From: a virus
Reading direction: 5' to 3' (one strand)
Length of the DNA: 64,000 nucleotides
IMG/VR virus record: IMGVR_UViG_3300021197_000864
Span: 1-64,000 of that record
In this document: positions 1 through 33,533 of the stretch, one piece after another
Layout of the letters: each line of letters begins with the position of its first letter
Numbering within the stretch: position 1 is the first letter of the stretch
The notes under the pieces: model-generated
The model's database searches: none
What the model was told of the DNA's origin: nothing
What the model saw: the letters and a program-made list of their open reading frames with translations, nothing else
Translations under genes and position numbers: made by a program

Positions 1-1088
1 AATTTTTTAGCAAATTTTGCAGGGTCTATTTTTGATTGTTTAAACAGTTTTTCTCTTTCACGTAATACTTCCCAATCTTTTTTATAAGACTCCTCATTCA
101 CATCTACTAAATTTTTAACATATTCTATGCCTTGGTTCTTTAATTCTCTTGGGTCTAAAGTTATATTCTTAAACAGTTTTGCACTATCTTCAAGTATTTT
201 TTTTGCTTGTTCCATGTTAATTTGAAATTTATCAGAAGCACTTTGATTTCCTTCACCTTTTATCCTATTTTTATCAGTTAGAGCAAATCCAGTTTCTTTA
301 TTTAGATGTGCTAATAGTTTATCTTGGTATTCTCCTTCACCCCCAACACCTGCTAATCTTCCGGCCACTAGTTCAGGATTATTTTTATTAAACGTAGCAG
401 TTAACTCTGCAATTTTATTATTTTGTTCACTTGCAAACTTGGATACTTCAGTAGATGAGGTAGCCATTTGCTTCAAGAATTTTTGATTTAACATAAAACC
501 CGTAACAACTGCCGCAGTTTGTAATGTAGTTGATTCTAATATGCTTTTACTCATTGGGTCTTCTACAATGGTTTTACCTGATACTTTACCTTTACCTAAT
601 ATCTTATCTAATAATCCTCTACTTTTACCAATTCTTTTCAATATCTGAGCAATTGCCTTTTCATCCCCAACCTCTAAAGAGATAGCAGAAAACACATCTG
701 ATTTTTCTTTTAATTTTTCAATTGACTCTTTATCCATGTTTACAGAGGCTTTTTTAAATTGGGCTTCTAATTTAAGAAGTTCTTTTCTTTCTTTGATTAT
801 CTTAGCCATTTCTTTCATTCTAAGATTGTCTTGTAATGCTGCTCTTTCTTGTATAGAAACTAATTGTATCATCGTTAGAACAGTTGCTTTTGCTTTATTC
901 AATACTTTCCAAGCACCTGTTCCTGATAAGAATCTACTAATAATCTCATAATTTTTACCACTAACTAAAGTGTTTACACCTTTTAATGATGATTTTAACA
1001 TCATAGCATCTTTACTAGATTGAACTAATAATTTATCCATTCCTTTCAAGGAATCTTCTAATTCATTAATTTCATCTGTCATACCCAT
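1..1088 (-). CDS. tail tape measure protein (N-terminal part; runs off window)
   Basis: Open minus frame from ATG at 1088 (MGMTDEINELEDSLKGMDK...), AGGTGA RBS; helical K/A/E-rich; follows tail tube and chaperone genes. Confidence 0.7.
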   Translation of the reverse strand, partial: MGMTDEINELEDSLKGMDKLLVQSSKDAMMLKSSLKGVNTLVSGKNYEIISRFLSGTGAWKVLNKAKATVLTMIQLVSIQERAALQDNLRMKEMAKIIKERKELLKLEAQFKKASVNMDKESIEKLKEKSDVFSAISLEVGDEKAIAQILKRIGKSRGLLDKILGKGKVSGKTIVEDPMSKSILESTTLQTAAVVTGFMLNQKFLKQMATSSTEVSKFASEQNNKIAELTATFNKNNPELVAGRLAGVGGEGEYQDKLLAHLNKETGFALTDKNRIKGEGNQSASDKFQINMEQAKKILEDSAKLFKNITLDPRELKNQGIEYVKNLVDVNEESYKKDWEVLREREKLFKQSKIDPAKFAKK

Positions 1089-1093
1089 AAAAA

Positions 1094-1300
1094 TCACCTT
1101 CCTTTCTTTGCTTTATTAAATTCTTCTGATTCTATTCTTTTAACTTCACCATGTATCTCTAACATCTGCGATACTAAAGTTGCGGGAGTATGATAAGCCT
1201 CTAAAGGACTAACACTAAAAGTTGTTGAATAAGTATATATCATTATTCGTGATGCAATATATGGTGGAACACTACCACCCTTTAATGCTTTACGAATCAA
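1094..1300 (-). CDS. tail assembly chaperone, -1 frameshift extension (gpT-like)
   Basis: In the -1 frame behind slippery G GGA AAC at the end of 1297..1662; precedes tape measure. Confidence 0.7.
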   Translation of the reverse strand: MIRKALKGGSVPPYIASRIMIYTYSTTFSVSPLEAYHTPATLVSQMLEIHGEVKRIESEEFNKAKKGR

Positions 1301-1662
1301 CTTTCGTTTCCCGTATCATCCCCCATCATATCTGTAAAGGGGTTAGGTAACACTTCTTTTAATTGTGTACCTACATACGGACTTAAACGCAATAATTCTA
1401 ATGCACTTAAACTAGGTTCAGTTTTCTCAACAAAATTTTCAACCATAAACCTATACATTTTATTTAAATCTAAACCAAATGAATTGGTTGATGAATCAAT
1501 ATCCATCACGGTTGATAAGGCTTGTTCCACCTGTAACCAAGTTGGTTCTTTAACCCAAACCATTAGGTATTCATCAGAATCGGGTTCTACCCTCAAATGA
1601 TGGCATTCAGTATTTACGGCTGCAAACAATTTACTCTTATCACTAATTACTTTCTTTTCCAT
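1297..1662 (-). CDS. tail assembly chaperone (gpG-like)
   Basis: 121 aa acidic protein between tail tube and tape measure, with slippery site at 3' end. Confidence 0.7.
   Translation of the reverse strand: MEKKVISDKSKLFAAVNTECHHLRVEPDSDEYLMVWVKEPTWLQVEQALSTVMDIDSSTNSFGLDLNKMYRFMVENFVEKTEPSLSALELLRLSPYVGTQLKEVLPNPFTDMMGDDTGNES
1306..1312 (-). other. programmed -1 ribosomal frameshift heptamer GGGAAAC
   Basis: X XXY YYZ in frame (acG GGA AAC); -1 frame reads GKRKLIRKALK into 1094..1300. Confidence 0.75.
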
Positions 1663-1804
1663 TTTTCCACCTTCAATAAACTAACAAACAAACAAACGAC
1701 TGTTAGTGGAATATAATATACTACTTTTTTCTATTTATGCCTCCATAATTAGAAAGGTGGTGAGGGTAGTAATTGCAGCCGCCCCCACCATGTAAATACC
1801 TCTA

Positions 1805-3244
1805 TCAATCATTGTTTATAATAACCCATTTACCTTTGTATTTGCAATCAGATAGACTTCTAGCAGATATAGTTGCTTCTACCTCTATTGGCCCTTTATC
1901 ACTAGGGAAAGGTACATTTACACTTTGAATGATATAATCATCTAATTCTATCTCTATGAAATCATCATCAGATTTTTCAAATCGCAATTTAATTTTACCT
2001 GTATCTGTATCATATTCTTCTTGCTCTCTCAATTCTTTCCATATTGCAGTATCAGTAATTAATAGTGTTAATGATAATTCATATGTCCTTTGAGCAGGTA
2101 TATGCGCATTCATTATTTGTCTATTAGTATTACCAATAAATCTTTGTTGAGTAAAGTTATTATTAATAGTTAATGAACCTGATTTAACCCTAGCATAAGT
2201 CTGACCGAATAATGTAATAGAACCATCAGAATACATATATGGTGTAGTTGTTGAAGTATCATAATTAAACAACCCTGTTGCCCCTTCTTCGGCTCTATGA
2301 GGAACATAATCAGTAGGGGCATCAAAAGCCCTTCGAGTTACTAATTCAAGAGAAGTTTTTAATTCTTGACTTTCTTCAAAATTTAATGTCATAGTATTAA
2401 CCTGACATCCTGTAAATATTCTTGAATACATAGATGCTCCACCATCATCTACAACAAGCCTATTGGTATTAGATGCTTTATTATAACTTACATCTAAAGC
2501 AAACGAAGGTAATTCTTGACCATTTAATTCTTTAAATGTATATTGTATTGTGCCAGTACCAATCTCTTTTAAAGGGTCTGTATCTAAAACAGGAGGAAAC
2601 TCATTTCCACCAATTACTCTTAAAAATTTAGTGCTATTGTTACCCGCAGTGACAGTTTTACTACTACTACCCATAGCAGTACTTGTTGCTGTATGTTCTA
2701 CCGCATCAATCTTACCTAAAGCATAGTAAAACCAAGAACCATTATTCAAAGAAATATCTAAAGAGCCACCACTAACTGTTTCTGCACCTTTGTATTGGTG
2801 TGCAAAGTTTCGTGAACCTGAAACTGCTAGATTAAGTTGTTTCATTTCAACTTCAACATTAGGAGGAGTAAACTCATTGACTAGACCTAACCAATTATCT
2901 GATAATAAAGCGTTTCTATTAGCACTTGCTCGAACAAACTGTGAAGTAGGTACAGGTGCGCCAAACTTTTGAATTGTTGCTCTTATAGAACCTGATGTTA
3001 AAGCAGTAGTTGCATCTATGGTTATTGTTGATTCAGAATTATCTACTATGGTGTGATATTCAGTAGTACTACCTTGGAATAATTTCACTTCACAACCTAT
3101 ATACAAATCAGGAACTAGTTTTATTGTAGTATCATTAAATGTAATTACTTTACCTGTAAATTGACAGGTAGTACCTAGTAAAATATTGCTTTCAGGTATC
3201 ATTGTTGCTTGTGTGCCACTACCGACATATACTTCATTACTCAT
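1805..3244 (-). CDS. major tail (tube) protein
   Basis: 479 aa beta/Thr/Ser-rich; FTGCQVNTMTLNF, GSLTINNN and GPIEVEATISA patterns typical of siphovirus tail tubes; synteny. Confidence 0.75.
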   Translation of the reverse strand: MSNEVYVGSGTQATMIPESNILLGTTCQFTGKVITFNDTTIKLVPDLYIGCEVKLFQGSTTEYHTIVDNSESTITIDATTALTSGSIRATIQKFGAPVPTSQFVRASANRNALLSDNWLGLVNEFTPPNVEVEMKQLNLAVSGSRNFAHQYKGAETVSGGSLDISLNNGSWFYYALGKIDAVEHTATSTAMGSSSKTVTAGNNSTKFLRVIGGNEFPPVLDTDPLKEIGTGTIQYTFKELNGQELPSFALDVSYNKASNTNRLVVDDGGASMYSRIFTGCQVNTMTLNFEESQELKTSLELVTRRAFDAPTDYVPHRAEEGATGLFNYDTSTTTPYMYSDGSITLFGQTYARVKSGSLTINNNFTQQRFIGNTNRQIMNAHIPAQRTYELSLTLLITDTAIWKELREQEEYDTDTGKIKLRFEKSDDDFIEIELDDYIIQSVNVPFPSDKGPIEVEATISARSLSDCKYKGKWVIINND

Positions 3245-3255
3245 TTTTTATCACC

Positions 3256-3771
3256 TTAGATGCTTCTAGCGAACCGCTTTAACTCAATGGAAAGTTTGTA
3301 TCCTAATAACCTTTTTCCTCTATCATTGGCTTCGCTTCTTCCTGTTAGTTTAATCAACTCTGCACTCTCTTCCGTAGAAGTCCCTGCATTTACCGTAGGA
3401 TTTAGACCATTACTTTCTATAATATATCTAGCAATTCTGTATAGTGCTTGTAGCCTATCTCTAGAAAATGTTAACTCGGCAAAATCCCTACGATGCAATA
3501 CTCTCAAATGTAAAGTAAAGGTATAAGTTTCATTTCTAACAGAATAATCTATGGTAGGATATTCAGTAGAATTACTATCTTCAAAAACAACTATTACTGA
3601 TTGAGAATCAACATCAACTCTTCTCCCTTCATTGGGAGCAATAGACCGAACATCAATAAATCTTGGAGTTGCAATATGTGATGAAGTTATATCTCCTCTA
3701 GATTGTAAAGTGCTTGCAGCAGATGACCAATTATCACTCAATAATTCAATGATAAATGTTACTTCATCCAT
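3256..3771 (-). CDS. putative tail terminator/completion protein
   Basis: 171 aa directly upstream of tail tube; alpha/beta pattern. Confidence 0.5.
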   Translation of the reverse strand: MDEVTFIIELLSDNWSSAASTLQSRGDITSSHIATPRFIDVRSIAPNEGRRVDVDSQSVIVVFEDSNSTEYPTIDYSVRNETYTFTLHLRVLHRRDFAELTFSRDRLQALYRIARYIIESNGLNPTVNAGTSTEESAELIKLTGRSEANDRGKRLLGYKLSIELKRFARSI

Positions 3772-3956
3772 GATGAAACCTCTTTAGTAATTTCTTTCTC
3801 TAACTCTTTTTGAAATATATCCATAGCATTTTTTAAAGTATCTTCTTCTGAAAAACTCATATCAAAACCCAAATCATCTTCTATCTCTTTTAACAAAAGA
3901 TTTCTCTGTTTTTGGATTTCCAAAATCTCATTAAATCTAGCCATCAATTTTTTCAT
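3759..3956 (-). CDS. hypothetical protein
   Basis: Tightly packed ORF in neck operon. Confidence 0.55.
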   Translation of the reverse strand: MKKLMARFNEILEIQKQRNLLLKEIEDDLGFDMSFSEEDTLKNAMDIFQKELEKEITKEVSSWMK

Positions 3957-3960
3957 AATA

Positions 3961-5031
3961 TCACAAACTATAAATTACTATTTTCTTGCCATTTAGAGTT
4001 TCCATTGCTTCTTTTACTAATATATCATGCTTAGTTTTTAAGTCAATATTAGAACCTGTTTCAGCAATTAATATTGAATTATCATCATGTCTTATTATTT
4101 CAGCAGCAACCAATTTAGTTGCGGCATCATGTATAACTCCGGGTACTCTTCTATCTCCACTAACATAAGTTATTTTACAAGAATGATTTTGAACATAAGG
4201 ATAATTTTTCAAAAAGAATATTTTACCCTCACTGTTAATAGTCCAATAATCACCTAATCGTCTTTGGTCTTGATTGTCTGTAAAGTTTGTTTTAGAACCT
4301 GCACTAACAGTTATAGTACAATCTGAACCATCATCCCCCGGTAAAAGGGAAGATATAATCACTTTACTGCTGTCTTCTGTATCAGTAGATGCATAAAAGA
4401 AATCAGATATGTTTCTAGTTAATCCACCACTAGTAGCAGTTTTAGATTTAGCCGCAGTCTCACCTGTAAATTGTGCAGTTTGTTGTGGAAATACTTCATT
4501 AATTGCATCTGCTACTTGACTAGCAGTAGTCTTTTTACCAAATGAACCAAAGAAATGAACACCTTCTGTTAATACAAATGAAAAATTACCTACTCCTAAT
4601 GTTAAATTATATCCTGAACCTGTTGCAGGTGGAGAATAAGAAGCAGTAGCAGAAGCCAAATCAACATAACTATTACCTTGCCAAACTTCTAATCTAACTA
4701 TTTTCATTATTTTAGGTCTTTCTAATTGTATAAAACCCACATAGTCTTTGTATGGTTGTACCGGATACTGAGCATGTCTAAAGAACTCAAAATTATGTAC
4801 TTCATCTCTGTATATTATTGGTCTAAAAGGATGACCTACTTTATCATCTATCTTATCTTCAACTCTTTTAATTATTTTACCTACTTCTGCTCTTGTAGGA
4901 GTCGTACTATCCGTAAACGCACTAATTTGTAATAAGTTAGAAATATCAGTATGTGTTGTATAATATCCAAAACCTATATTATAATTCACATCAATATTGG
5001 TGAAATCACTTGGTGATGATGCTTTACCCAT
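3961..5031 (-). CDS. putative head-tail adaptor with inserted beta domain
   Basis: N-terminal YTTxxDI...IxRVEDxID and C-terminal VPxxIxxAATKLVA helices resemble gp6/gp15-like adaptors; neck position. Confidence 0.55.
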   Translation of the reverse strand: MGKASSPSDFTNIDVNYNIGFGYYTTHTDISNLLQISAFTDSTTPTRAEVGKIIKRVEDKIDDKVGHPFRPIIYRDEVHNFEFFRHAQYPVQPYKDYVGFIQLERPKIMKIVRLEVWQGNSYVDLASATASYSPPATGSGYNLTLGVGNFSFVLTEGVHFFGSFGKKTTASQVADAINEVFPQQTAQFTGETAAKSKTATSGGLTRNISDFFYASTDTEDSSKVIISSLLPGDDGSDCTITVSAGSKTNFTDNQDQRRLGDYWTINSEGKIFFLKNYPYVQNHSCKITYVSGDRRVPGVIHDAATKLVAAEIIRHDDNSILIAETGSNIDLKTKHDILVKEAMETLNGKKIVIYSL

Positions 5032-5046
5032 TTAATTCACCCCAAA

Positions 5047-6777
5047 TCAAAACCTATCCACCATCCGTTCTAAACTTCTGTATGTCGCCTTTAGTCTATT
5101 AATTGTTCCTACATCTTTCAATTGGTATTCCCCCGTTGAACTATCTTTTTCTGATGATATTGTTTTTGACCCACCACGTTCTGTCATTCTTTTACCCCTA
5201 CGTTCAGGAGATAAAAATGTTTTATTAACATTAAAATTATACTCACTTAAATATTCTTTTGCTATTTCATCTATCTTTATTACAGGAAATACATTACTAG
5301 TCATTTTTAATCTACCTGCATCTGTAATTTCTTTTGTTCCAAGAGCATTTGAGCCATCTTCTTTTCTACCTGATACAATTCTTTTTTGTCTAGGTGTATT
5401 ATACCATGCTAAAAATTCTTGAGGTTCTTTATTTATAGCAGCATCAACAAAACTTGCCCCATATGTTTCTATAATATCTTCTAAAATATCTCTTTCAGAA
5501 CTTATATCAGTAACATCTTCATCTCCCTCATCGGACTCAATAATTAATCTATTTTGTTCATCAATTGATACAGAAGCATTTGCGTTATCTCTAATTGATT
5601 TTTCTGCTTCTAATACTTTTTTTCTATCTCTAGATGCCTCTACCAAATCTTTAGCAGTATCTTTCGCTTCACCACTACTATAATCACCAGTTATTGCTGC
5701 TATATCAGATTTATTTAATTTCATCTTTTTATATGTAATATCCAAACTACCTGTTTTTAATTTACCATTTTCAGGCTGAACAAAACTCATGATTGCATCT
5801 TTTATAGGATTAGTTACAGGTTTATTTAAATCTAAAGATATATCTTCCATAGTAAAAGATTCAAAATATGACTTTGCTTCTGCAAAATCTGTAAAACTTT
5901 TATCTTCTCCTAAACCGTAGAAAATATATTCATCATCACCATCTTCATTAACTTCTACACGCATTGCGTAAATAATACCTGATTTTCCTGTAACTTTTTT
6001 AGAATCCCGAATACCTCTTTCTTGTATATCTTTAGCATCAAATATAGTACCTACTTTTACCTTTACTGTTTTCTTAAATGATTTTCTTTTACCTGACTTT
6101 AAATTGCCTTTTCTATCCATTATCTTTGCATCTTTTAACATTTTTTCTATGTATTTTTCAGAATCAAATATAATACCGCTATTACCACTATTAACATAGT
6201 CACTTAGATTAGAACTCAACATAGGTTTTCCTGAAAGAAATGCATCTAATGTACTATTATCACTACCTTCTACTTCTAAAGTATAGTTGATAACTCTATC
6301 TACTTTGGCTTTATTCTCTAAATCTTTTACTTTAAATTTAATATCATCCATTCTTTTTTTAGTAATATCACTAAAAATAGTTGATTCATTTAAAAGATTT
6401 CTTTTCTTTAAATCATTAATCAAAGATATTAAATTTTGTTGTTGTATTACAGTTAGAAACCTATCCATATACATTCCATATGATTCATGAGAATAATATG
6501 GTCTATTTTCATTACTTAAATCAATTTCTGAACTATTAATATCTAAATTATCAAACTTTTTTTTATTTAATGTATCATAAACAAGGTCATCTAGATTATT
6601 CATTCTAGGATTATTAGGCTGTATTTCATGAAAAATATAAGTAACTAAATGCTCATATAATTTTACATTTTCCATAAGCCTAACATGACCATACGTTAAA
6701 TATGTAGGTTCTAATATAATGTCTGATTGAGTCGGGCTATTATCATCTTCAACAAATATTCGTTCTGCTTCTGCCAT
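5047..6777 (-). CDS. hypothetical protein (576 aa)
   Basis: Long ORF with GGTGA RBS; no recognisable motif. Confidence 0.75.
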   Translation of the reverse strand: MAEAERIFVEDDNSPTQSDIILEPTYLTYGHVRLMENVKLYEHLVTYIFHEIQPNNPRMNNLDDLVYDTLNKKKFDNLDINSSEIDLSNENRPYYSHESYGMYMDRFLTVIQQQNLISLINDLKKRNLLNESTIFSDITKKRMDDIKFKVKDLENKAKVDRVINYTLEVEGSDNSTLDAFLSGKPMLSSNLSDYVNSGNSGIIFDSEKYIEKMLKDAKIMDRKGNLKSGKRKSFKKTVKVKVGTIFDAKDIQERGIRDSKKVTGKSGIIYAMRVEVNEDGDDEYIFYGLGEDKSFTDFAEAKSYFESFTMEDISLDLNKPVTNPIKDAIMSFVQPENGKLKTGSLDITYKKMKLNKSDIAAITGDYSSGEAKDTAKDLVEASRDRKKVLEAEKSIRDNANASVSIDEQNRLIIESDEGDEDVTDISSERDILEDIIETYGASFVDAAINKEPQEFLAWYNTPRQKRIVSGRKEDGSNALGTKEITDAGRLKMTSNVFPVIKIDEIAKEYLSEYNFNVNKTFLSPERRGKRMTERGGSKTISSEKDSSTGEYQLKDVGTINRLKATYRSLERMVDRF

Positions 6778-6790
6778 TTACTCACCATAT

Positions 6791-7504
6791 TTACGCCAAC
6801 CATTTAGCCCAAGCAACTGCTTTACCAATTCCCTGTGCTATCCCCAATCCACTTTGAGGTGGTGTATATGTTGGTTGACCTGTTTGTGGGTCAATCCAAT
6901 ATGGATTATTAAACTGGTCATAACCTGATGGTGGTATAGGATAACCACTACCATTGTTCATAGCCATTTGTTGTTGCATTACTTGTTGATTCATTCCACC
7001 CATTGCAGGTGCGCCTTGTATATTTGCAGGATTCATACCTTGAGGATTACCCATTGCAGGATTCATACCTTGAGGACTACCTTGTGCCATTGAACCTGAA
7101 CTAGATGCAAATCCTTGAGACTCTAAATATTGTTCTTTTGCCATCTTTCTTTGCATAATAACTTCGGTATTAAGTGCAGCACCTAGAATATTCTGCAAAT
7201 CTAATGTAATATTTTCAGCAGTAATAGATTCATATTCTCTCAATGAATCAGGATGTACTTCTAAATCTCCACCTGCACCTTGAATAAATTTTAATTGTGG
7301 TAGCATTTGTCCTAATACTCTTTGTGTAACATCTTCTAACAATTTTTCAAATGCTGTTAAAAATGCTTCACCATGATAATAGAAGAACTCTTCTACATGA
7401 TTTTCTTGTAGTGTCAATAAATTATTCATTGACTTAAATTGCGTTTGTTGGTTTTGTGTTATCTGATTCGATAACGACCCATTACTTGTACCTAGCCACC
7501 CCAT
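6791..7504 (-). CDS. Q/M/G/N low-complexity protein with C-terminal amphipathic helix
   Basis: PQGMNPA repeats, YWIDPQTGQPTY motif, ends GIAQGIGKAVAWAKWLA. Confidence 0.75.
   Translation of the reverse strand: MGWLGTSNGSLSNQITQNQQTQFKSMNNLLTLQENHVEEFFYYHGEAFLTAFEKLLEDVTQRVLGQMLPQLKFIQGAGGDLEVHPDSLREYESITAENITLDLQNILGAALNTEVIMQRKMAKEQYLESQGFASSSGSMAQGSPQGMNPAMGNPQGMNPANIQGAPAMGGMNQQVMQQQMAMNNGSGYPIPPSGYDQFNNPYWIDPQTGQPTYTPPQSGLGIAQGIGKAVAWAKWLA
7024..7076. repeat. 23-bp direct repeat, period 30, encoding PQGMNPA
   Basis: ttgcaggattcataccttgagga at 7024 and 7054. Confidence 0.9.
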
Positions 7505-8169
7505 TCGTCTTCCTCCTTATTTTCTTGTATTTGTGTTCCTTCTATTAATAATTTTTTAACTCTTTCATTATGTGCATTATTTTCTACAATTAATCTAAAC
7601 AATTCTTCCTCTCTTGTTTCTGTATTCATTTGTGGGGGTTTTATAGTCCATCCTAATGCTGATAAGTTTTGTATGTCCTGTTGTTTCAAAGTAGTTAATG
7701 GCCCACTTGCAATTGGATTTAGTGATTTCATACTAGGTACATAAGCACTAAATGATAATCCATGTTCCTCCGCAAGCATCTGTTGTTCTAACATTTCATA
7801 TTGCCTATGCATATGAGAATGCTTATCACAATAAGTACCTCTCATTGGGTAGCCCTTCCTAACTTTATGTAAAGGTATCGGTGGTCTAGTTGCATCAGAA
7901 GCATTCCAACGCTTTTGTGTACCGCATACTACACACCTATCTTTTACATTAAATGCAAACTTATATGGGATTTTTAAAAATGTTTTTTTCTCAGGTTTGA
8001 GAATAGCAACAATTTCTTTTAATTGTTTTTTTGGCTTGTTACTTTTAAATTCATATTTCATTATAGAACCCGGTGCGCGAGCCATTTCTTTGGGAGGTAA
8101 AAATGGATTGGCTTCAACATATGCGTTAGTAGAACCAATTAAACTAGGAGGCTGATAATTCATACTCAT
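7492..8169 (-). CDS. zinc-finger protein, ArfGAP-like signature (tentative)
   Basis: CVVCG..RWNAS...GTYCDKHSHMHR versus ArfGAP CxxC..WAS...GxxxCxxCSxxHR. Confidence 0.5.
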   Translation of the reverse strand: MSMNYQPPSLIGSTNAYVEANPFLPPKEMARAPGSIMKYEFKSNKPKKQLKEIVAILKPEKKTFLKIPYKFAFNVKDRCVVCGTQKRWNASDATRPPIPLHKVRKGYPMRGTYCDKHSHMHRQYEMLEQQMLAEEHGLSFSAYVPSMKSLNPIASGPLTTLKQQDIQNLSALGWTIKPPQMNTETREEELFRLIVENNAHNERVKKLLIEGTQIQENKEEDEWGG

Positions 8170-8267
8170 TGTTCAATCCCATCCATTTCTTTACATTCAA
8201 TACAATTACAAAATTCACTCATAGAACAATTTAATGTTGTATAATATCTTTTTTCTTTTCTTTTCAT
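8166..8267 (-). CDS. 33-aa Cys-rich microprotein (not in ORF track)
   Basis: MKRKEKRYYTTLNCSMSEFCNCIECKEMDGIEQ; AGGTGA RBS; ATGA overlap with next gene. Confidence 0.6.
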   Translation of the reverse strand: MKRKEKRYYTTLNCSMSEFCNCIECKEMDGIEQ

Positions 8268-8275
8268 TTAATCAC

Positions 8276-8947
8276 CTAATAATCTTTAATCATTGTTAAT
8301 ACGCCACGATATACCATTTCTGAATCTGATTTTGCACTTACTATATATTTGAAGCATGGTATTCCTTTCTCATTTAATTTTGTCATTCCACTTTTAAAAG
8401 TCTCAAATATTGGATGGTCTTTAATTTCTCCTTCATGTGGGTATTTGTCTTTCCATAAATCATATTTGTTAGCCCATATACCTACTGCTATTGGATAATC
8501 ATGAGATTTTTTTCTACCCTTTTTATTTATAGCATCCCAATAAGGAGAACATATTGTATCAACTAAAAAAGTCCAACACAACTGCTGCTCAATATCATAA
8601 TGCTTATCCATATGTCTGTCATCAATCATGAATATGATATACTTAACCTTTCTAGTTTTCATATCCCCAATCCATTCAGACCAAAATACTGTTTCTCCTC
8701 CTACATCTGCTGTTTTAACTGTATGTGCATCCCCATCTAATTTAACATATTTCCTACTTGCCTTTTCACGACCAACAGTTCTTTTCTTAATTTCCGGTAC
8801 TTCACCTCTCGTTCTTAATTGATGATGTAATGTGGTTTTTCCTACCTTTGTTGCACCATAGATACCAAAAGGAATAGAATGCATTCTGTTCCACATCTTT
8901 GCTACGCCTTCTGCTACTAATATAACAAACCCCGCCATTACTGACAT
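8276..8947 (-). CDS. Ras-superfamily (Arf-like) small GTPase
   Basis: G1 GATKVGKT, G2 RTVG, G3 DVGGE, G4 NKYD, G5 SAK; N-terminal hydrophobic/amphipathic helix. Confidence 0.9.
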   Translation of the reverse strand: MSVMAGFVILVAEGVAKMWNRMHSIPFGIYGATKVGKTTLHHQLRTRGEVPEIKKRTVGREKASRKYVKLDGDAHTVKTADVGGETVFWSEWIGDMKTRKVKYIIFMIDDRHMDKHYDIEQQLCWTFLVDTICSPYWDAINKKGRKKSHDYPIAVGIWANKYDLWKDKYPHEGEIKDHPIFETFKSGMTKLNEKGIPCFKYIVSAKSDSEMVYRGVLTMIKDY

Positions 8948-8953
8948 AATTAA

Positions 8954-9187
8954 TCACCATAGATGATGCCACCAATTAACGATTGCAGTCCAAGTAGAAT
9001 TATAAAGATTAATTCCCCAAAAAGGCAAAGCATGCCCTACAAAAAAACTAGTAATACATGCGGCAGTTGACCAAAGAAAAAATCTAGTTCTTAAAAACCA
9101 TATATCAGCAGAATGCGCTCTTTGTAAATCATATGCTAATGTGGATTCATCGAATCCCATTAATAATTCAGAAACCATATACCTCAC
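8954..9187 (-). CDS. small membrane protein
   Basis: Hydrophobic segment FFLWSTAACITSFFVGHALPF; Trp-rich C-terminus. Confidence 0.7.
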   Translation of the reverse strand: MRYMVSELLMGFDESTLAYDLQRAHSADIWFLRTRFFLWSTAACITSFFVGHALPFWGINLYNSTWTAIVNWWHHLW

Positions 9188-9615
9188 TCATTCATAGTCA
9201 AGAATGTAGGGCTTATGGTATTATCAACAGGTTGCTGATATGTTTGACCAAATGCAGGTACGGGATTTTGTATGAAGTTATTTCCGTAAGTTTGGTCATA
9301 TTGACGCATTGTATCTCTAACTCTCTTTCGATTTTCTTCTTCTTTCTGTTTTCTAGACCAATATGCATCTATCTTTCTTTGCAATAAAATATCTTCTATT
9401 CTATCAAATAAAGTTAAATCGAATATTGCTTTCAGTATCATTATACCTCCTATGGTTAATATCCCAAACAATAGTGCATGGGTATAACCTGCATATGGAA
9501 ACATAAATCCATATTGGGTATAAAAATAAATATTAACGCCACTTACTGCGCCAACAAATAAAATCGTCATTACTAATCTTGTATCATCTTCTAAACTTGG
9601 CATTCTTTTTTCCAC
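9184..9615 (-). CDS. two-TM membrane protein with coiled-coil tail
   Basis: Two hydrophobic helices then charged helix and Q/P/N tail. Confidence 0.75.
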   Translation of the reverse strand: MEKRMPSLEDDTRLVMTILFVGAVSGVNIYFYTQYGFMFPYAGYTHALLFGILTIGGIMILKAIFDLTLFDRIEDILLQRKIDAYWSRKQKEEENRKRVRDTMRQYDQTYGNNFIQNPVPAFGQTYQQPVDNTISPTFLTMNE

Positions 9616-10836: not shown

Positions 10837-12213
10837 CTAAGCACTCTTAATGTTAGTAATCTTACCTTGACCCTTGAAGAAAGAACAGCAAGTTTCACCC
10901 ATTGTTCTGTACATTCCTTGGTTTCCAAGTTTACCGACACCGAATGGGTTTCCGTTAGTAATTCCATCCTCAAAGTATTGAGTTGGTTTCATAACAGATA
11001 GCCACATATGGTCTGTATCTAGGAACAGCATATCACTCAGTTCATTTGTTGAGTTACTACCAGTTGAAGGCATATCCTTTGCAGGGATTAGAGGGATATC
11101 AAAGTATGTTGCTACTCTAAATCCAACTTCTTGACCCTTTGCACCTTTTACACCATTATGTGTAGGAACAATCTCTTTCCTATCCATAAATCTTTCTTGG
11201 CTTTGTAGTAAGTCAGCAATGTGCTGAATAGTATCGTATCCTGTTAGAATACATTTTGGGTTTCCACCATTTTGACGGATTCTTCTAATCATACTATTAA
11301 TCATAGTGAGAGTTAGAACTCTAGCATCACCTGCTGCATATCCATCTCCAAAGTCAACCTCTGCATCCAAGAAAGAAGCAACACCTGTTGCAGCGTTACT
11401 ACTAATAGTAACACTTCTTGTTGTACCAAACAGATTAACTACATCTGCAACAACTGCGGAGTTATCTCCATTGTTTGCACCAGTAGTCAATAAGTTAGCA
11501 TTATACATAGCAGCGATTTCACCCGCAGAAGAAACAATCTTCATCAAAGAAGTATAGTTTCTTTCAATGTTTGTTGCTGTACCATCATCATATGATTCGT
11601 ATGGCATAACTAGCATTTTGCTTTGTGTTTCTGCATGATGCTTACCCATATCTTCTCTAACGATTGCACGAATGTCTCCGACACCATCATCAATAGCAGC
11701 CAATTCCATACCAAGTTCTGAGAACTCAAACAAATGAGCAACAGTTTTTGGACTTACGAATAATTTAGCGTATTCAGGTGAAAGTGGTCTAAACCCATTT
11801 GCACCGTCTAATGTTGCATTTTCTTCTACTCCACCAATTTGGTCTACTCTAGGTGCAGATAAATCAGCAGTGTTTGCAGCAACAGCAGTTGTTCCTGTTC
11901 CAAATGCAGAACCACTACCACCAGTAGGTCGGCTCTTTAGAACTCTCCATCCTGATGATGTGTAAGGTCTTTTTGCTAGAATTGAAAGAGGGTTAACCTC
12001 TTGGTTTAGCATTGACCATACTTTTTGTCCGTAAAGAACATTGTATAAATCTCCCAATCCACTTGCTGCACTAAACGGGTTTGATGCAGCGTCATGGGGC
12101 GTTCCGAATCCACCGACAACACCTGAACTCTTTAATAGAGCATTTCCGGCAGGGCCAGTTAATCCATAGGTTGCGGCTTCTAAATCTTTAATTGTGTTTG
12201 TGTATCCACTCAT
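10837..12213 (-). CDS. major capsid protein (HK97 fold)
   Basis: 458 aa after prohead protease; E-loop/P-domain-like KxxAHxFEFSE, YFDIPLIP; highly biased codons. Confidence 0.85.
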   Translation of the reverse strand: MSGYTNTIKDLEAATYGLTGPAGNALLKSSGVVGGFGTPHDAASNPFSAASGLGDLYNVLYGQKVWSMLNQEVNPLSILAKRPYTSSGWRVLKSRPTGGSGSAFGTGTTAVAANTADLSAPRVDQIGGVEENATLDGANGFRPLSPEYAKLFVSPKTVAHLFEFSELGMELAAIDDGVGDIRAIVREDMGKHHAETQSKMLVMPYESYDDGTATNIERNYTSLMKIVSSAGEIAAMYNANLLTTGANNGDNSAVVADVVNLFGTTRSVTISSNAATGVASFLDAEVDFGDGYAAGDARVLTLTMINSMIRRIRQNGGNPKCILTGYDTIQHIADLLQSQERFMDRKEIVPTHNGVKGAKGQEVGFRVATYFDIPLIPAKDMPSTGSNSTNELSDMLFLDTDHMWLSVMKPTQYFEDGITNGNPFGVGKLGNQGMYRTMGETCCSFFKGQGKITNIKSA

Positions 12214-16993: not shown

Positions 16994-17311
16994 TTAACCC
17001 CTCCTCTTTAATTTACCATCTGAATCAAATTGAAAGGATACTACTTCTGTACCATCTTTTTCTGCAACATCAATATAAAACCCGTCTCCATCAAGGCTCA
17101 ACTCTATTTTAAGAAAACGGCCAAGACCTGCCATTACCTCTCCACTATCAATATCTCCTTGTAATTGTTTTAATTTTTCTTCGGTATAATCGCTTTCATC
17201 AAATACATTCCTATTTAGGAAGTTATCTACTTCCTTTTCTAAAATCCCTATAAATGTTCTTATATCTCTTGCTACCTTACGTTCTTTCTTCAATGTCGTT
17301 TCCCAACTCAT
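16994..17311 (-). CDS. hypothetical, W-x-x-h-h-K tagged
   Basis: MSWETTLKK. Confidence 0.7.
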   Translation of the reverse strand: MSWETTLKKERKVARDIRTFIGILEKEVDNFLNRNVFDESDYTEEKLKQLQGDIDSGEVMAGLGRFLKIELSLDGDGFYIDVAEKDGTEVVSFQFDSDGKLKRRG

Positions 17312-17640
17312 TTCAAATCACCTTTCTTACTTGGATATACCATACTTCGTAACTGATTATACAAAGTCTCGTAATCCTTCCTTAGTTCTGCTGCTGACGC
17401 TACAATACTTAAGTTCTTTTCATCAAACCCATTTAATTTTTTAGTTAGTTTCTTATCACTTTTAATTAATTCAACTTTCTTCATCTCATCTATAAGAGTA
17501 GATAGTTTAGTTAAATCTTGACCAAAATATTCAGAAGGTTGAGTAGATTGAAGTAATTTCTTCAATTTCTTTTTTTCTTTAGGTTCTAGTTTTTCCAATA
17601 AACCACTATCTGCTTTTTGAAGTGTATATTGCCAACTCAT
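17308..17640 (-). CDS. hypothetical, tagged
   Basis: MSWQYTLQKA. Confidence 0.7.
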   Translation of the reverse strand: MSWQYTLQKADSGLLEKLEPKEKKKLKKLLQSTQPSEYFGQDLTKLSTLIDEMKKVELIKSDKKLTKKLNGFDEKNLSIVASAAELRKDYETLYNQLRSMVYPSKKGDLK

Positions 17641-17646
17641 TCTAAA

Positions 17647-18000
17647 TCACCTTTTCATTCTACTATCTATATCATAGCCAAATACTTTAGATTCTCTACC
17701 ATCATAAAACTCTTGAAACTCTTTTAAGAGTCTTGCAAGTTTTCTAATTTTAGATAGTTCAAACTCATCTTTTTCTCTTAGACCATCATTAGCCACTAAT
17801 AACGTATCTTCAAACTCATCTAATCCAACATCTCTAATTATATCTGCCAAAGCATCTCCAATATCACTTTGATATGGCGCTACACCATCTTCGCTGTTAC
17901 TTTTGTTTCCTTCCCTTTTTACTTTAACTCTATTAAACTCTGCATCTTCATCTTCAGGATAAGGATAATACTTATATTTAATTATATTTTTCCAACTCAT
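17647..18000 (-). CDS. hypothetical, tagged
   Basis: MSWKNIIK. Confidence 0.7.
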   Translation of the reverse strand: MSWKNIIKYKYYPYPEDEDAEFNRVKVKREGNKSNSEDGVAPYQSDIGDALADIIRDVGLDEFEDTLLVANDGLREKDEFELSKIRKLARLLKEFQEFYDGRESKVFGYDIDSRMKR

Positions 18001-19355
18001 TCTAAATCACCCATGACTTCTCTTAATATAGCAAACTTTTCAGGCAAAGACTCAACTTCAACAGTATGTACATCATTTCGTAAGAACGACTTATCTAAAG
18101 AGATTTCCCTTAATTCTGCTAAATAATACATAAATGCATATAATTCAGTAGTTCTTTTTAATTCCATACGATAATCTTCATCTTTTATATCTGCTACACC
18201 TATACTAACATCTTTAGGTAAACCTTCTTCATCAAACATAGGGTCAGGTTCAGCCAAGTAATAGGATTCTTTAGCCTCTTCATCATCTAGTAAATCACCA
18301 AGTCTTATTTCTATTGCATCAGCATAATCAATAATCTTAGACTCTTTCATTTCAGTAAATATTTTTACCTGTGATTTAGTAGCATCAGGATTCATTGCTT
18401 GTTTAATATCTGTTGCTACCTTTCTATAATTTAAATCTATAAACCCTCTTAATCGTTTTGTATCTCCAACTTTTATTTGTTCTAATTTAAATCCTTTCTT
18501 AGTAAATATTTCTTTCAACAATTCTATTCCTGTTTTACCAGAATACTCATCATTTAATACTTCTAACAATCTAACAGGGTGTCTACCTTGTTCATATTTA
18601 TCTAGAAATTTAAATACATTTTTTTGAGAAAATAGTCTGGACTCACTTTGTAATGTATCCAATTCACCTCTATAATTTTCTATTCTAGAGTCTTTACCAT
18701 ATCTATTAAGTAAATTAGTTAATGTGGAGATAAAAGAATAATCACTAGAAGAACCTCTTTCTTTTCTAGATAGTTGGTCTTCTAACTTATCGAGCGTAGA
18801 TATAGCAGTTTCTAATTTACTGAATATATTTTCATCGACTACAAACGCATCATAGATAGCCTTTTCATCTGAACCTTCTTCTAAATTTTCTACAAAATTA
18901 TCCAATTGTTGTTGATTTTCTTCTGAACGCATATCATCAGACATACCCGCTAATAAAAACATAGCAGCATTATCTTGTTTAATTTTTAGAATTTGTTTAA
19001 ACACTTTACGATGTGCTGTAATGGCTACAAATATTTTACTCATATCTATCTTAGGTTCTCTTACAGGTTCTCCTGAATCTCTAAAATTTTGTGAACCTAA
19101 TCTATTATATCCACCTGAAGCAGTCATCAAGTCATCAGATAAAGATTCTCGAAGCCTATCTTTCCAATTACCATCAGTAACTCTAACTACATTTTCCAAA
19201 TTGTTAACGAAGTTATCAGGAACTTTACTAGACAATAAATCTTTTACTTTAGGAGAAAATGTTTTTTTAATTTGGTCTAATACAAAAGCAGTTTTAGCCG
19301 TAGGCTCTTTATGACCGCGAATATCTGCTTTCAATAGTATAGACACACTTACCAC
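17997..19355 (-). CDS. hypothetical protein (452 aa)
   Basis: Long ORF, N-terminal ILLKA. Confidence 0.7.
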   Translation of the reverse strand: MVSVSILLKADIRGHKEPTAKTAFVLDQIKKTFSPKVKDLLSSKVPDNFVNNLENVVRVTDGNWKDRLRESLSDDLMTASGGYNRLGSQNFRDSGEPVREPKIDMSKIFVAITAHRKVFKQILKIKQDNAAMFLLAGMSDDMRSEENQQQLDNFVENLEEGSDEKAIYDAFVVDENIFSKLETAISTLDKLEDQLSRKERGSSSDYSFISTLTNLLNRYGKDSRIENYRGELDTLQSESRLFSQKNVFKFLDKYEQGRHPVRLLEVLNDEYSGKTGIELLKEIFTKKGFKLEQIKVGDTKRLRGFIDLNYRKVATDIKQAMNPDATKSQVKIFTEMKESKIIDYADAIEIRLGDLLDDEEAKESYYLAEPDPMFDEEGLPKDVSIGVADIKDEDYRMELKRTTELYAFMYYLAELREISLDKSFLRNDVHTVEVESLPEKFAILREVMGDLE

Positions 19356-19561
19356 TTATTTTCTGTATTTCTTTTTCTCTTTGGCATTAAAATTACGTCA
19401 GGAATATCATTGCTGTCAGGAATTTTCTTTTCTACTGTTCTAGACAAATCAATACCTACTGCATCTAAATCTCTATTCACTTCTACCTTACGCGCATTAT
19501 ACACTTTTGCTCTTGCTTCTGCTAGTTCTCTTTCTAATTGTCTTACACTTTTTTCAGTCAT
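19349..19561 (-). CDS. hypothetical protein
   Basis: AGGTGA RBS. Confidence 0.65.
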   Translation of the reverse strand: MTEKSVRQLERELAEARAKVYNARKVEVNRDLDAVGIDLSRTVEKKIPDSNDIPDVILMPKRKRNTENKW

Positions 19562-19604
19562 TTAATCACCTTTTTTTAAATATGCTAGAATAACAACTCC
19601 GGCA

Positions 19605-21251
19605 CTAACCTACCCTTCTTTCAGTTCTTTTATCAACATTTTGATTTCCGGCTGCTTCAGGTAAACCACTAAATCTTTTATCAGGCCCACTATCCATACT
19701 AGGTTTATTTCTAGTTGTAGCAGGATTCTCTTGTTTTTTACCTTGATTCATCATCTCTTCTTGCATTTGTCCTAATTGACTTGCATCAATATCTGTACCT
19801 GCATACGGGTCTAATTCAACTTCCCCTTCTCCCTCTCCACCTTTATCTGCTTGTTCCGGTTTAGGTTCAGGTTTAGAATAGGAAAATCTACCTTCATCAT
19901 CCATGTCAATTTCAAACCCTAGATTCTTAATAGATGCAGCAATATTAACTTCAATCTCTCGCTTTCTTAATTTAGCAACTTCATCTTCTTCTTCTGATGG
20001 TGGAAGTTTTAGAACCCAATCGGTAATTCCAAACTCTTTTGTTACAAAAGGAAATACATAATTATTCCAAATTGTTTGAGCCATTTCTACTGCTCTATTA
20101 GTAACAAGTATTTGCATACCTTCATTATTTAATCCTCCACTAGAAGAATTATCAGCCATAAATATTTTACTTACTCCATAGAAACCTGATACCCTATCTC
20201 TCAAATCATCTTTGACTGAGACATAATCCATTTCTTTTAGACTATCCATAAACTTAATCCATTCAATAGAACCTTTACCACCTTCTGATTCAATACCCAT
20301 TACAGGTATAAAGTGTGGGTCTTGTTCCATCTTTTCTTTTACGCCTTTCCAAAAAGATTTCATAGATTCTATATTTCTAGTCTGTACTGCAAGTAATCCT
20401 CTAGGCATTCTTGCCTTAGTATATGATGAATTGATATAATTATCCATAGCAATAAGTGTTGTAACACTATTCCATAAAGTAATTAGTGGTGATAGACCAT
20501 ATAGCCTACTAGGTGTATATTTACTAAAATGTAAGACTTCACCTTCTAAGAAATATTGTTCTTCACCATTTACTCTATTAACATAATGTATAGGATATAA
20601 TTCAGATGTACCACAATGAGGACAAGACCCTACCGGAGTATCACTAATGAAATCTCTATGCCTTAAACAGGTAAATCCCTCATTGCCTCTTTCACCTAAC
20701 TCATCAGCATAAATATGCATACCAACTGGGTCGCCTCGATAGATTTCCTTTATACGGTGCATCATTACTTCTGAATCATTATCTAAGAAATATTCCTTAA
20801 CTAAGACTAAGTATGCATCATCCATTATGTTCAAATCATCTTCTAACTCCTTAAGTACATCAATAAACAATTGTTCTGATTTGTTGACATACCCCTCCAT
20901 AAATGATAATGCGTATTTTAGTTGGTCACGATTAGGTTTAGACAAGTTTGTAGAGCCACAATCTACACATTCGATTGTTGGGGTTTTATGTTCTTTACAG
21001 CAGTCATCACACTTAGCGACAAACTTTTCTTCCCAAACATACCCTCTTCTAAATATTTCATTTTTTAATTGAGTAACGCAAGTTCTAACTATTATAGATT
21101 GATTTGCTATATGATAGATAATAGGTGCAGTTAACATATAGGAATTATCTTTCTCCTGAATACCCGGATTAAACACCTTACGGTCAGCAGGTCTTGGGGT
21201 TGTTCTTCTGAATAGATTCGTTATGCTGAATCTTCTTTTTTCTTCTACCAT
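19605..21251 (-). CDS. portal protein with Zn-ribbon insertions
   Basis: YGLSPL, helical stem pattern, FYGVSKIFM; between terminase and head genes; CxxC pairs. Confidence 0.85.
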   Translation of the reverse strand: MVEEKRRFSITNLFRRTTPRPADRKVFNPGIQEKDNSYMLTAPIIYHIANQSIIVRTCVTQLKNEIFRRGYVWEEKFVAKCDDCCKEHKTPTIECVDCGSTNLSKPNRDQLKYALSFMEGYVNKSEQLFIDVLKELEDDLNIMDDAYLVLVKEYFLDNDSEVMMHRIKEIYRGDPVGMHIYADELGERGNEGFTCLRHRDFISDTPVGSCPHCGTSELYPIHYVNRVNGEEQYFLEGEVLHFSKYTPSRLYGLSPLITLWNSVTTLIAMDNYINSSYTKARMPRGLLAVQTRNIESMKSFWKGVKEKMEQDPHFIPVMGIESEGGKGSIEWIKFMDSLKEMDYVSVKDDLRDRVSGFYGVSKIFMADNSSSGGLNNEGMQILVTNRAVEMAQTIWNNYVFPFVTKEFGITDWVLKLPPSEEEDEVAKLRKREIEVNIAASIKNLGFEIDMDDEGRFSYSKPEPKPEQADKGGEGEGEVELDPYAGTDIDASQLGQMQEEMMNQGKKQENPATTRNKPSMDSGPDKRFSGLPEAAGNQNVDKRTERRVG

Positions 21252-21307
21252 ATCTTATCCCCCTAATTATTAATTATCCGATTTCCCAAACACATATTAA
21301 AGTTCCT

Positions 21308-22675
21308 TTATGTGCTATTTACTCCTATCAGATTTGAGGCATCATCTCTCTCTAACTTATCCATCCAACTCATTTTAGAATTTTCTTCTAGTTTACTTAT
21401 AGAATCCAAATCAATATCAAAAGCAGAAAAGTCAAAGTTTACATTATCCCTATGATTATGATATTTCATTAATTTAAATAATTCTCCCATCCTACCTTTA
21501 GCCCAAGGTTGTTTTTTAAATCCTTTTTTGATTCTAACCAACTCTAATAATATATCTGCATTCGGGCCTTTCATTCTAAAGTGTGGCCTACATTTAGTCA
21601 ATAAATCATGCACATCTTTTTGAGAATAGAAGTTTAATCTGTTTACAGGTCTAGTATCTTGTGGAGATTTTTGGTCTAAATGTAATCTACCCATACCTAA
21701 ACACTTGTGTAACTCTAACATGAAAGCCTTACCTCTATCTCCCGTAGCAACTAAACCAACTCTAGGATTGTTATTTCTATCCATAGTAATATATCCATCA
21801 GAATCTATGAATGCCGCAGTATAAGCCCAAACATTCTTTTTAATATCATCATTTATTTTATAATATGCTCCATCCACATTAGTAATATTTTGACTAATTG
21901 CTAATTTAGAAATAATTTGAGGAGAAGACATTTTCTTAAGATTATCAGGTAATGCTTCGTGTATTTCTCTAGAAGATATTCCCGGTGAATTACAAACAGA
22001 TTTCAAAATGTTTTCTTTAATCCTTTTCTTAATTCCTTTTGTAGAACTTTGAGATTTTATAATTCTCTTAAAATCTTTTTTTGCTGTTGTCATTTCTTTA
22101 CTAATAGAAATATATTGTTTATTTAAAGGCATATCTTTTATTTCTAATTTATTCTCCCAATACTTACAAAGAGAATCTATAACCTGTCTTTTGGTATCTA
22201 TATCTTGAATTTTGCTAAGTTTGATTATCTGTGATTCCGAACAAGTCATATCTTTAATTATAGATTTATATGGACTAGCCCAATAAATCTTATCAATACT
22301 CTTATCTAAATGGTCTGCGTAAGCATCTATTAAATTATCAATAGATTTACTCATATCCAACCTTTTTTCACCCTTAAGGGTTCTTCTGAACATTCTCATA
22401 TCTTTAACCAAATCAGGAATGTTCTTACTCTCTATTGTGTATTCCTTAAGTGATAAATCTAATATTCTATCTGCCTTTGTATAAGACATATTGAAATCTT
22501 CTGCAAATTCTTTTACTAAATCATTGTGGCTAGATAATGGCCTACCATCGAGCCATAACATCTTGGCCTCTAGTTCCATCTCCTGCTCTAGTTGACGTTG
22601 CTCAGCAGTAAGTTCTTCAACTTCCTTTACTTTGTCTGTTAATGCTTGTAGTTGTTCAGAATTAGGAGTCGCCAT
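21308..22675 (-). CDS. LAGLIDADG endonuclease domain with long N-terminal helical/wHTH region
   Basis: WAYTAAFIDSDGYI motif; upstream ILKSVCNSPGISSREIHEAL HTH-like segment. Confidence 0.8.
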   Translation of the reverse strand: MATPNSEQLQALTDKVKEVEELTAEQRQLEQEMELEAKMLWLDGRPLSSHNDLVKEFAEDFNMSYTKADRILDLSLKEYTIESKNIPDLVKDMRMFRRTLKGEKRLDMSKSIDNLIDAYADHLDKSIDKIYWASPYKSIIKDMTCSESQIIKLSKIQDIDTKRQVIDSLCKYWENKLEIKDMPLNKQYISISKEMTTAKKDFKRIIKSQSSTKGIKKRIKENILKSVCNSPGISSREIHEALPDNLKKMSSPQIISKLAISQNITNVDGAYYKINDDIKKNVWAYTAAFIDSDGYITMDRNNNPRVGLVATGDRGKAFMLELHKCLGMGRLHLDQKSPQDTRPVNRLNFYSQKDVHDLLTKCRPHFRMKGPNADILLELVRIKKGFKKQPWAKGRMGELFKLMKYHNHRDNVNFDFSAFDIDLDSISKLEENSKMSWMDKLERDDASNLIGVNST

Positions 22676-22690
22676 AATATTTACCTCTTT

Positions 22691-24127: not shown

Positions 24128-24131
24128 TATA

Positions 24132-25389: not shown

Positions 25390-25393
25390 TTAA

Positions 25394-30896: not shown

Positions 30897-30906
30897 TTCT
30901 CATCCC

Positions 30907-32646: not shown

Positions 32647-32647
32647 A

Positions 32648-32785: not shown

Positions 32786-32786
32786 T

Positions 32787-33473: not shown

Positions 33474-33533
33474 TAGACCACAACCCGCTATCACTAGCAA
33501 GCAGTCAACATTGGCTAAAGGATATAATGCTGC

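Follow-up and report, generated by a model that had tools for sequence, protein, structure and literature searches.

A conserved gene cassette with an Arf/Sar-like small GTPase in magroviruses, a candidate for the egress step of archaeal tailed viruses

Introduction

The egress of archaeal tailed viruses is an acknowledged gap: its players have been described as "completely uncharacterized", and the host GTPase OapA/ArvA has been raised only as speculation for enveloped viruses (PMC10791045). ArvA is a GTPase with an N-terminal helix, has Arf as its nearest Pfam family and is followed downstream by a Zn-ribbon gene (PMC10927574). In this study, a cassette of genes is described that encodes two transmembrane (TM) proteins, a small GTPase, a Cys/His protein and a protein rich in Gln, Met and Gly (Q/M/G-rich protein), located at positions 6791-9615 of the virus record IMGVR_UViG_3300021197_000864. 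The DNA analysed, referred to as the window, comprises the first 64 kb (64,000 nucleotides) of this record, which is 95,571 bp long and rated as complete by CheckV. The window codes for TFIIB, an RFC-like clamp loader, two ATP-dependent DNA ligases and ribonucleotide reductase, and a late array on its minus strand codes for the large terminase, the portal, the prohead protease, an HK97-type major capsid protein (MCP) and a tail tube protein. Judged from the encoded proteins, this is the gene set of magroviruses, which are tailed viruses assigned to Marine Group II archaea; in the surface ocean, few viruses are more abundant (PMC5434244).

We propose that the cassette is probably a virus-made, membrane-acting GTP switch that serves late in infection, with the release of progeny as the leading guess among its outputs, given a probability of roughly 0.4. 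Because it is virus-specific and couples an Arf-type GTP switch to membrane proteins, the cassette is a candidate for the missing egress step, one that is concrete and clonable, and it is core to at least four magrovirus lineages. If a wider form of the proposal, outlined below, is true, this would be the first egress system known for archaeal tailed viruses, and viruses would carry an old branch of the Arf-type GTPases that is separate from those of eukaryotes and Asgard archaea. That euryarchaeal viruses have a deep Arf/Sar-like lineage also bears on the origin of the membrane-trafficking GTPases. No GTPase is mentioned in the main texts (supplements were not searched) of the magrovirus papers or of the archaeal Caudoviricetes survey, and no publication on the cassette was found. 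New here are the comparison of four lineages with their differing cassette positions, the co-occurrence counts, the status of a micro-open reading frame (micro-ORF) within the cassette, the variability of one residue of the G3 motif and the rejection of an ArfGAP-like finger.

Approximately 570 cassette loci were recovered in IMG/VR, and the four lineages compared are named A to D. Lineage A is the close lineage, represented by 80 IMG/VR loci with GTPases 74-99% identical to the window protein, and lineage B comprises 127 loci on contigs of up to 118 kb with GTPases about 30% identical to it. Between the lineages, the GTPases are only 27-35% identical.

Comparison with described systems

The Arf family (Arf6, Arf1, Arl2, Arl13B, Sar1 and the Asgard ArfR proteins) provides the nearest sequence relative with a solved structure and the best structural matches of the viral GTPase, with which it shares a hydrophobic or amphipathic N-terminal helix directly before beta1, a GKTT P-loop, a DxGG motif with a Trp eleven residues after the Asp, and the NKxD motif. 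A Trp at this distance from the G3 Asp is common to Arf, Sar and G-alpha. The viral GTPase differs from the Arf family in that the identity is only 13-22%, many members have E, D or H in place of the catalytic Gln, the switch-I region is longer, a polybasic insert precedes G4 and a conserved W/HPIF insert follows it, the G5 motif SAK is Ras/Rab-like, and the gene belongs to a prokaryotic virus. SRbeta is the best Pfam hit of the window protein (21.3 bits, under the cut-off of 25 bits), and both are small GTPases with an N-terminal hydrophobic helix, which in SRbeta is a membrane anchor. However, no SRalpha/SRX-like partner is recognisable beside the viral GTPase, and the Trp after G3 is an Arf/Sar-like rather than an SRbeta-like feature. 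Small Ras-superfamily GTPases in viruses were previously known only for giant viruses of eukaryotes, such as the mimivirus Rab (5XC5), and the viral structure library BFVD returned matches to giant-virus GTPases only. These are likewise virus-encoded members of the Ras superfamily, but recent captures of eukaryotic Rab, Ran or Ras, whereas the magrovirus family forms a deep, virus-only lineage of tailed archaeal viruses with its own partner genes.

By description, the closest functional analogue of the viral GTPase is ArvA of the euryarchaeal ArvABC (OapABC) system. In both, a small GTPase with an N-terminal hydrophobic helix and an MMR_HSR1-type annotation is followed by a small Zn protein; ArvABC acts in membrane deformation, and the viral cassette differs from it by adding two membrane proteins and the Q/M/G-rich protein. 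This likeness is the basis of an alternative in which the cassette would serve a non-lytic takeover of the host membrane or host cell, through vesicles, an assembly or replication platform, a superinfection block, or interference with ArvA-type vesiculation or division of the host. ArvA, ArvB and the Zn-ribbon protein ArvC together drive vesicle formation with a similar GTPase-then-Zn gene logic (PMC10927574), ArvA, annotated as MMR_HSR1 with Arf as the nearest Pfam family, resembles the viral GTPase in profile searches, and the Arf/Sar fold is linked to membrane deformation rather than perforation. Against this stands that a search of the whole 95.6-kb genome with PF09846 did not find OapB/ArvB, which it did find in the Haloferax and Methanosarcina controls, and that none of 25 members of the viral Zn protein family matches the ArvC-type Zn-ribbon (DUF2072) or any other Pfam family at E 0.01; the viral Cys/His site is of another kind. 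In addition, the cassette is always found on the strand of the structural (late) genes and never among early genes, tailed virions have no need of a membrane, and a profile search of 1.84 billion representative proteins returned no cellular Ras, Arf or Era protein at E 1e-3, which argues against a recent copy of a host gene. We regard a takeover of this kind as unlikely, although it is to be taken seriously.

The lysis cassette of phage P2 is placed between head and tail genes. Holin-antiholin cassettes such as this one resemble the viral cassette in that two small TM proteins are neighbours, one of them with two TM segments and a cytoplasmic tail that is charged, and in a position within the structural array, from which late expression is assumed here. 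They differ from it in that no sequence relation and no endolysin is found, and the GTPase, the Zn protein and the low-complexity protein have no counterpart in described lysis cassettes.

The GTPase and its relatives

By its motifs and its modelled fold, the window protein is a Ras-superfamily small GTPase with G1 to G5 in order on a G domain, a divergent one that lies nearest to the Arf/Sar/SRbeta clade. A preliminary description of this DNA had named a complete small GTPase with an N-terminal hydrophobic helix as in Arf/Sar1, and both statements hold. The motifs GATKVGKT(T) (G1), T57 (G2), DVGGE (G3), NKYD (G4) and SAK (G5) read as given there and are all conserved in the family, in which little or no variation is seen in GKTT and in the DxGG motif with its following Trp; in the window protein, this invariant Trp is W92, eleven residues from D81. 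The N-terminal helix covers residues 1-19 with a Kyte-Doolittle (KD) hydropathy of 1.53 and residues 2-22 in the model, where it precedes beta1. It has a mean hydrophobicity <H> of 0.35-0.51 and a hydrophobic moment muH of 0.28-0.40, and is a borderline case that could lie in the membrane plane or act as a TM anchor. G6, F7 and E13 of this helix are invariant in lineage A, comparable helices are present in lineages B-D, and the most distant relatives have longer hydrophobic N-termini. In this family, the switch-I region is long, and G4 stands between a polybasic loop and a conserved W...HPIF insert. The loop, at residues 141-148 in the window protein, comes before G4 and is [KR]-rich in all four lineages.

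Among solved structures, the nearest relatives of the GTPase in sequence and in fold are of the Arf type. When the window protein alone was compared with Pfam, all matches were sub-threshold, with SRPRB followed by Roc, MMR_HSR1 and Ras (14.3 bits), and Arf (PF00025) was not matched at E<=0.01. Across 43 members of the family, Arf gave the best E-value of any Pfam family (4.2e-9) and was matched at E<=0.01 by 9 of the 43. The single window protein found no match among PDB sequences by phmmer, and the family profile found the Asgard Arf-like protein GerdArfR1 (8OUN) first, at E 1.3e-10, a small margin over Ras/Rab at about 1e-8; the 8OUN alignment begins within the region of the N-terminal helix (profile position 14). 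An AlphaFold2 model was built on an alignment of 43 sequences and reached a predicted local distance difference test (pLDDT) score of 87, and a model from a shallow alignment (pLDDT 57.6) was set aside. In a full-library structural search, the fold of the model was closest to Arf6, SRbeta and Sar1, and Foldseek gave at least 500 matches in the PDB at E<=1e-3, the matches listed being all small GTPases.

At least 359 close homologues of the GTPase occur in marine metagenomes, on contigs of up to 104 kb, and a few of them carry the JGI label "GTPase SAR1 family protein". The profile search of 1.84 billion proteins mentioned above yielded only 77 matches, which are family members, fragments or relatives of the same architecture with 20-33% identity. 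No match was found by tblastn in 50,697 GenBank phage records, and 185,579 cellular species genomes contained a single one, 75% identical, on the 28.9-kb contig NZMJ01000101.1 of an alphaproteobacterial metagenome-assembled genome labelled "Maricaulis sp.". This contig is probably a mis-binned magrovirus contig, and by these searches the GTPase family is virus-only. Fused forms of the GTPase with 491-2000 amino acids (aa) were searched for and none was found, which is weak evidence.

The residue that follows DxxG differs between the lineages. Lineage A has E or Q at this position, lineage B has Q, E or D, lineage C shares its H with Sar1, and lineage D has D or Q. Because of this variation, a fixed catalytic Gln is not a family property. 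The same position bears on a further alternative, in which a TRAFAC GTPase of a defence or conflict system, an origin that the preliminary description had raised, was captured and would serve anti-defence or inter-virus competition. A G3 motif of the DxxGE type is also found in conflict-system GTPases; however, E is only one of the four residues occurring here, four virus lineages have the family among their core genes while cellular genomes lack it except for the contig mentioned, and no PADLOC family matches any of eight cassette proteins at E 0.1, nor the GTPases of lineages B-D. Such an origin is disfavoured and would be very surprising.

Conservation and position of the cassette

The order of the five core genes, 2-TM protein, 1-TM protein, GTPase, Cys/His protein and Q/M/G-rich protein, is fixed in lineages A-D, with start and stop codons that overlap or nearly abut. 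Where the contig reaches far enough, the partner genes of lineage A are present in all cases (1-TM protein 80/80, 2-TM protein 79/79, the other two 69/69 and 67/67), and in lineage B the counts are 78/78, 76/76, 80/80 and 79/80, the last for the Q/M/G gene. A lack of co-conservation in related viruses had been set beforehand as the refuting outcome; the genes were instead found to be co-conserved in four lineages, at 100% in A and at nearly 100% in B. Besides the GTPase, no protein of lineage B, the MCP included, was found by tblastn with the window genes. Its flanking genes follow in the same order, with a 2-TM protein with a Q/M-rich tail and a 1-TM protein of about 80 aa before the GTPase, and a protein of 300-340 aa with the same RGTYC-x2-H core and a Q/M/G-rich protein after it. 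Profile comparison by hhalign confirms that three of the five proteins are homologous between lineages A and B, at 99.9% for the GTPase, 93.8% (E 1.7e-7) for the Cys/His protein and 92.7% (E 4.4e-7) for the Q/M/G-rich protein.

In the 80 loci of lineage A, the MCP is followed by three small genes, the five-gene cassette, a variable large gene and the tail genes, so the location between head and neck genes named in the preliminary description is true of this lineage only. It is not a fixed property, as in lineage B a distance of 21-23 kb separates the cassette from the MCP downstream of it and a 3034-aa protein precedes it, whereas the cassette is placed directly after a group-II chaperonin in lineage C, and after a protein with a D12 methyltransferase domain in lineage D. 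Because the genome position differs in this way, the cassette can be considered a self-contained module for which the head-tail location is not essential. This also weakens the idea of a morphogenesis helper, in which the GTPase would assist or control, as a chaperone or checkpoint of assembly, the completion of heads or their joining to tails, and its membrane features would have no role of their own. The place between MCP and connector-size genes on one side and tail genes on the other in lineage A and the adjoining viral chaperonin in lineage C fit such a role. However, two membrane proteins are obligatory partners and every lineage has kept the hydrophobic helix at the N-terminus as well as the basic loop, and a helper of this kind is considered quite improbable.

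Some further genes were observed around the cassette in the other lineages. In lineage B (79 of 80 loci) and in at least one locus of lineage D, a sixth gene for a protein of 80-88 aa with predicted TM segments follows the Q/M/G gene (L111:12372-12638; L174:8340-8585); it has no obvious counterpart after the window cassette, where a variable 576-aa gene is found. The 3034-aa ORF directly upstream of the lineage B cassette (L111:5-9109) is rich in CxxC knuckles. After the cassette in lineages B and D, separated from it by one or two small ORFs, lies a gene for a protein of 220-235 aa with an N-terminal CxxC and a weak helix-turn-helix (HTH) signal (L111:12962-13648; L173:8884-9591). A similar protein is encoded in the window far from the cassette, upstream of the terminase region, and the gene possibly indicates where the late or packaging module begins.

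Partner proteins

The hydropathy profiles agree with the 2-TM protein and the small TM protein named earlier. The 143-aa protein has two clear TM segments (13-33 and 42-71) and a tail that is charged, being rich in Lys, Arg and Glu, and then rich in Q, N and P. From this, its topology is probably N-in/C-in with a holin-like architecture; at least one TM segment together with a charged hydrophilic C-terminus is the pattern of holins, and the agreement is architectural only. Counterparts by position and topology in lineages B-D have 145-272 aa, TM segments and a Q/M-rich tail. The 77-aa protein consists of a conserved N-terminal part of about 35 aa, one moderately hydrophobic segment (about 36-54, KD 1.47) and a Trp-rich C-terminus, and counterparts of 72-95 aa occupy the same position in lineages B, C and D.

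The 33-aa Cys peptide of the preliminary description is a genuine but dispensable and lineage-restricted accessory micro-gene. Its motif N-C-S-M-x3-C-x-C-x-E-C is kept in ORFs of 20-33 aa in roughly a third of the lineage A loci, down to a GTPase identity of 75%. It is absent from lineages B-D and wherever the gap between the GTPase gene and the Zn protein gene measures 9-16 nucleotides (nt), which is the case in most close relatives. Gaps of 56-79 nt without the Cys micro-ORF (for example in loci L019, L034 and L045) hold other, unrelated ORFs of 20-24 aa (e.g. ...NSSIG..W...), and this gap seems to be a hot spot for micro-genes.

The Cys/His protein had been announced as a zinc finger, which stands in part: a Cys/His site is conserved in four lineages and probably binds zinc, but no known zinc-finger family is matched. 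C79, G83, G106 and C114 are invariant across the four lineages and H117 is nearly so, the second Cys shifts between lineages, and in lineages B-D the site is interrupted by an insert of 35 residues. The protein has 623 homologues, all of them metagenomic and without annotation, and comparison with Pfam, NCBIfam, PDB profiles and the Atlas gave nothing usable. An ArfGAP-like arginine finger was considered for this protein and rejected. The spacing is C-x2-C-x31-C-x2-H as opposed to C-x2-C-x16-C-x2-C in ArfGAP, where a catalytic Arg stands four residues beyond the finger. The in-register residue R122 is R or K in lineage A alone, its place being taken by H, L, F or the like in lineages B-D, and no profile from Pfam or the PDB is matched, ArfGap and OapC included; the local resemblance of C-x2-H-x4-R is real in this genome.

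The Q/M/G-rich protein contains a conserved domain of about 100 aa (approximately 29-127), a low-complexity region of Q, M, G, N and P, and a conserved C-terminus, and it begins with MGW/MGL-x-G. The low-complexity regions are placed differently between lineages, and the counterparts in lineages C and D consist of 37-44% Q+M+G+N. The composition is therefore as first described, but the amphipathic C-terminal helix is only modest (muH 0.28). This protein is also the origin of an alternative that concerns entry, in which the TM and Q/M/G-rich proteins would be packaged and form a DNA conduit in the membrane of the new host, with the GTPase acting after ejection. The nearest Pfam-bearing Atlas clusters are the ejection proteins gp7 of P22 (0.83) and gp14 of T7 (0.82), weak language-model leads whose scores are under a level that shuffled proteins also reach. 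The cassette lies inside the virion gene block in lineage A but outside the head and tail genes in lineages B, C and D, and the N-terminus M-G-W-L/F is faintly, and only faintly, like a terminal W-x-x-h-h-K tag carried by many late proteins (see below). No match was found in the PDB or PHROGs, none of 19 members matches a PHROG or Pfam ejection family, and we know of no nucleoside triphosphatase among phage ejection proteins. A role in entry is therefore judged improbable.

Proposed function

For the preferred reading, a GTP switch that acts on the host membrane, the following course can be outlined. When GTP is bound, the GTPase would be brought by its helix and basic loop to the host cytoplasmic membrane, where it would meet the cytoplasmic parts of both membrane proteins, and the Cys/His and Q/M/G-rich proteins would act as regulator and/or effector. 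Since the residue after DxxG varies (E, Q, D, H), it is likely that GTP is hydrolysed slowly or with a partner's help, which would suit a timer. The output would be a late change to the host membrane, most likely the release of progeny, because the 2-TM protein is holin-like in architecture and a known means of egress is lacking for archaeal tailed viruses. Metatranscriptome contigs from four studies cover pieces of all five core genes, which is weak evidence, as DNA carry-over is possible and parts remain uncovered.

Several points weigh against release. As already remarked in the preliminary description, no endolysin is recognisable, and neither a hydrolase nor an S-layer-degrading protein was found in or beside the cassette. 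The 143-aa and 77-aa proteins have no family match and are TM proteins without detectable relation to any holin, and the profile comparison of these two short proteins between lineages was not significant. The P22 and T7 leads of the Q/M/G-rich protein would fit entry instead. Furthermore, we know of no precedent for a GTPase in phage lysis cassettes, and we infer membrane binding, GTP hydrolysis and the contacts between the cassette proteins, as well as the late timing, the latter from strand and neighbours only. When the 225-aa Cys/His protein was modelled in complex with the GTPase (residues 22-223) in the presence of GTP and Mg, the prediction scored 0.00, which speaks neither for nor against binding.

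A wider form of the proposal is doubtful, in which the cassette would be a complete virus-owned membrane machine of an undescribed kind that opens or buds the archaeal envelope. In it, an Arf/Sar-like switch would work with the membrane proteins as its two receptors, the Zn protein as regulator and the low-complexity protein as effector. In a bolder variant, it would be a device that targets late proteins with the terminal W-x-x-h-h-K tag to the membrane.

Organisation of the locus and neighbouring genes

The coordinates of the six ORFs and of the other window features discussed are listed in Table 1. The six ORFs lie on the minus strand as described earlier, and their junctions are overlaps of 4 nt and 13 nt or gaps of 6-8 nt. 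The tightly packed six-gene operon that had been claimed is confirmed as to the packing but not as to an operon. The flanks are equally tight, with 6 nt to the upstream 103-aa ORF and 13 nt to the downstream 576-aa ORF, and because the packing continues into both of them, the six ORFs are a stretch of one long late gene array with no separate operon boundary.

Table 1. Features of the window discussed in the text.
Feature	Coordinates	Strand	Basis or remark
2-TM protein, 143 aa	9184-9615	minus	ORF; hydropathy
1-TM protein, 77 aa	8954-9187	minus	ORF; 4-nt overlap with upstream gene
Small GTPase, 223 aa	8276-8947	minus	ORF; G1-G5 motifs
Cys micro-protein, 33 aa	8166-8267	minus	ORF; four-Cys motif
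Cys/His protein, 225 aa	7492-8169	minus	ORF; probable zinc site
Q/M/G-rich protein, 237 aa	6791-7504	minus	ORF; low-complexity composition
HK97-type MCP	10837-12213	minus	upstream of cassette, as is the prohead protease
Tail tube protein	1805-3244	minus	downstream of cassette
576-aa protein	5047-6777		directly after cassette; hypervariable in lineage A
Protein with ligase domain, 850 aa	13449-16001		ATP-dependent DNA ligase domain
Canonical ligase	55537-57186		
CxxC/HTH protein	29801-30466		similar to the protein after the cassette in lineages B and D

The 576-aa gene shows only 21-33% identity, or is undetectable, in loci where the genes on either side retain 60-80% identity, a hypervariability as expected of a host-interaction or surface protein. 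The 850-aa protein with the ligase domain is encoded inside the head block, between the portal region and the prohead protease, and is additional to the canonical ligase.

Many otherwise unrelated late proteins start or end with the tag W-x-x-[ILV]-[ILVM]-K, abbreviated above as W-x-x-h-h-K, as in MSWKNIIK, MWFDILK, ...WWAAIK and ...WRTIMK (16994-35841 and 45149-46324 in the window; 5-9109 and 15378-18418 in L111). In lineage B, a tag of this type is found at both ends of the 3034-aa protein and on neighbours of the cassette.

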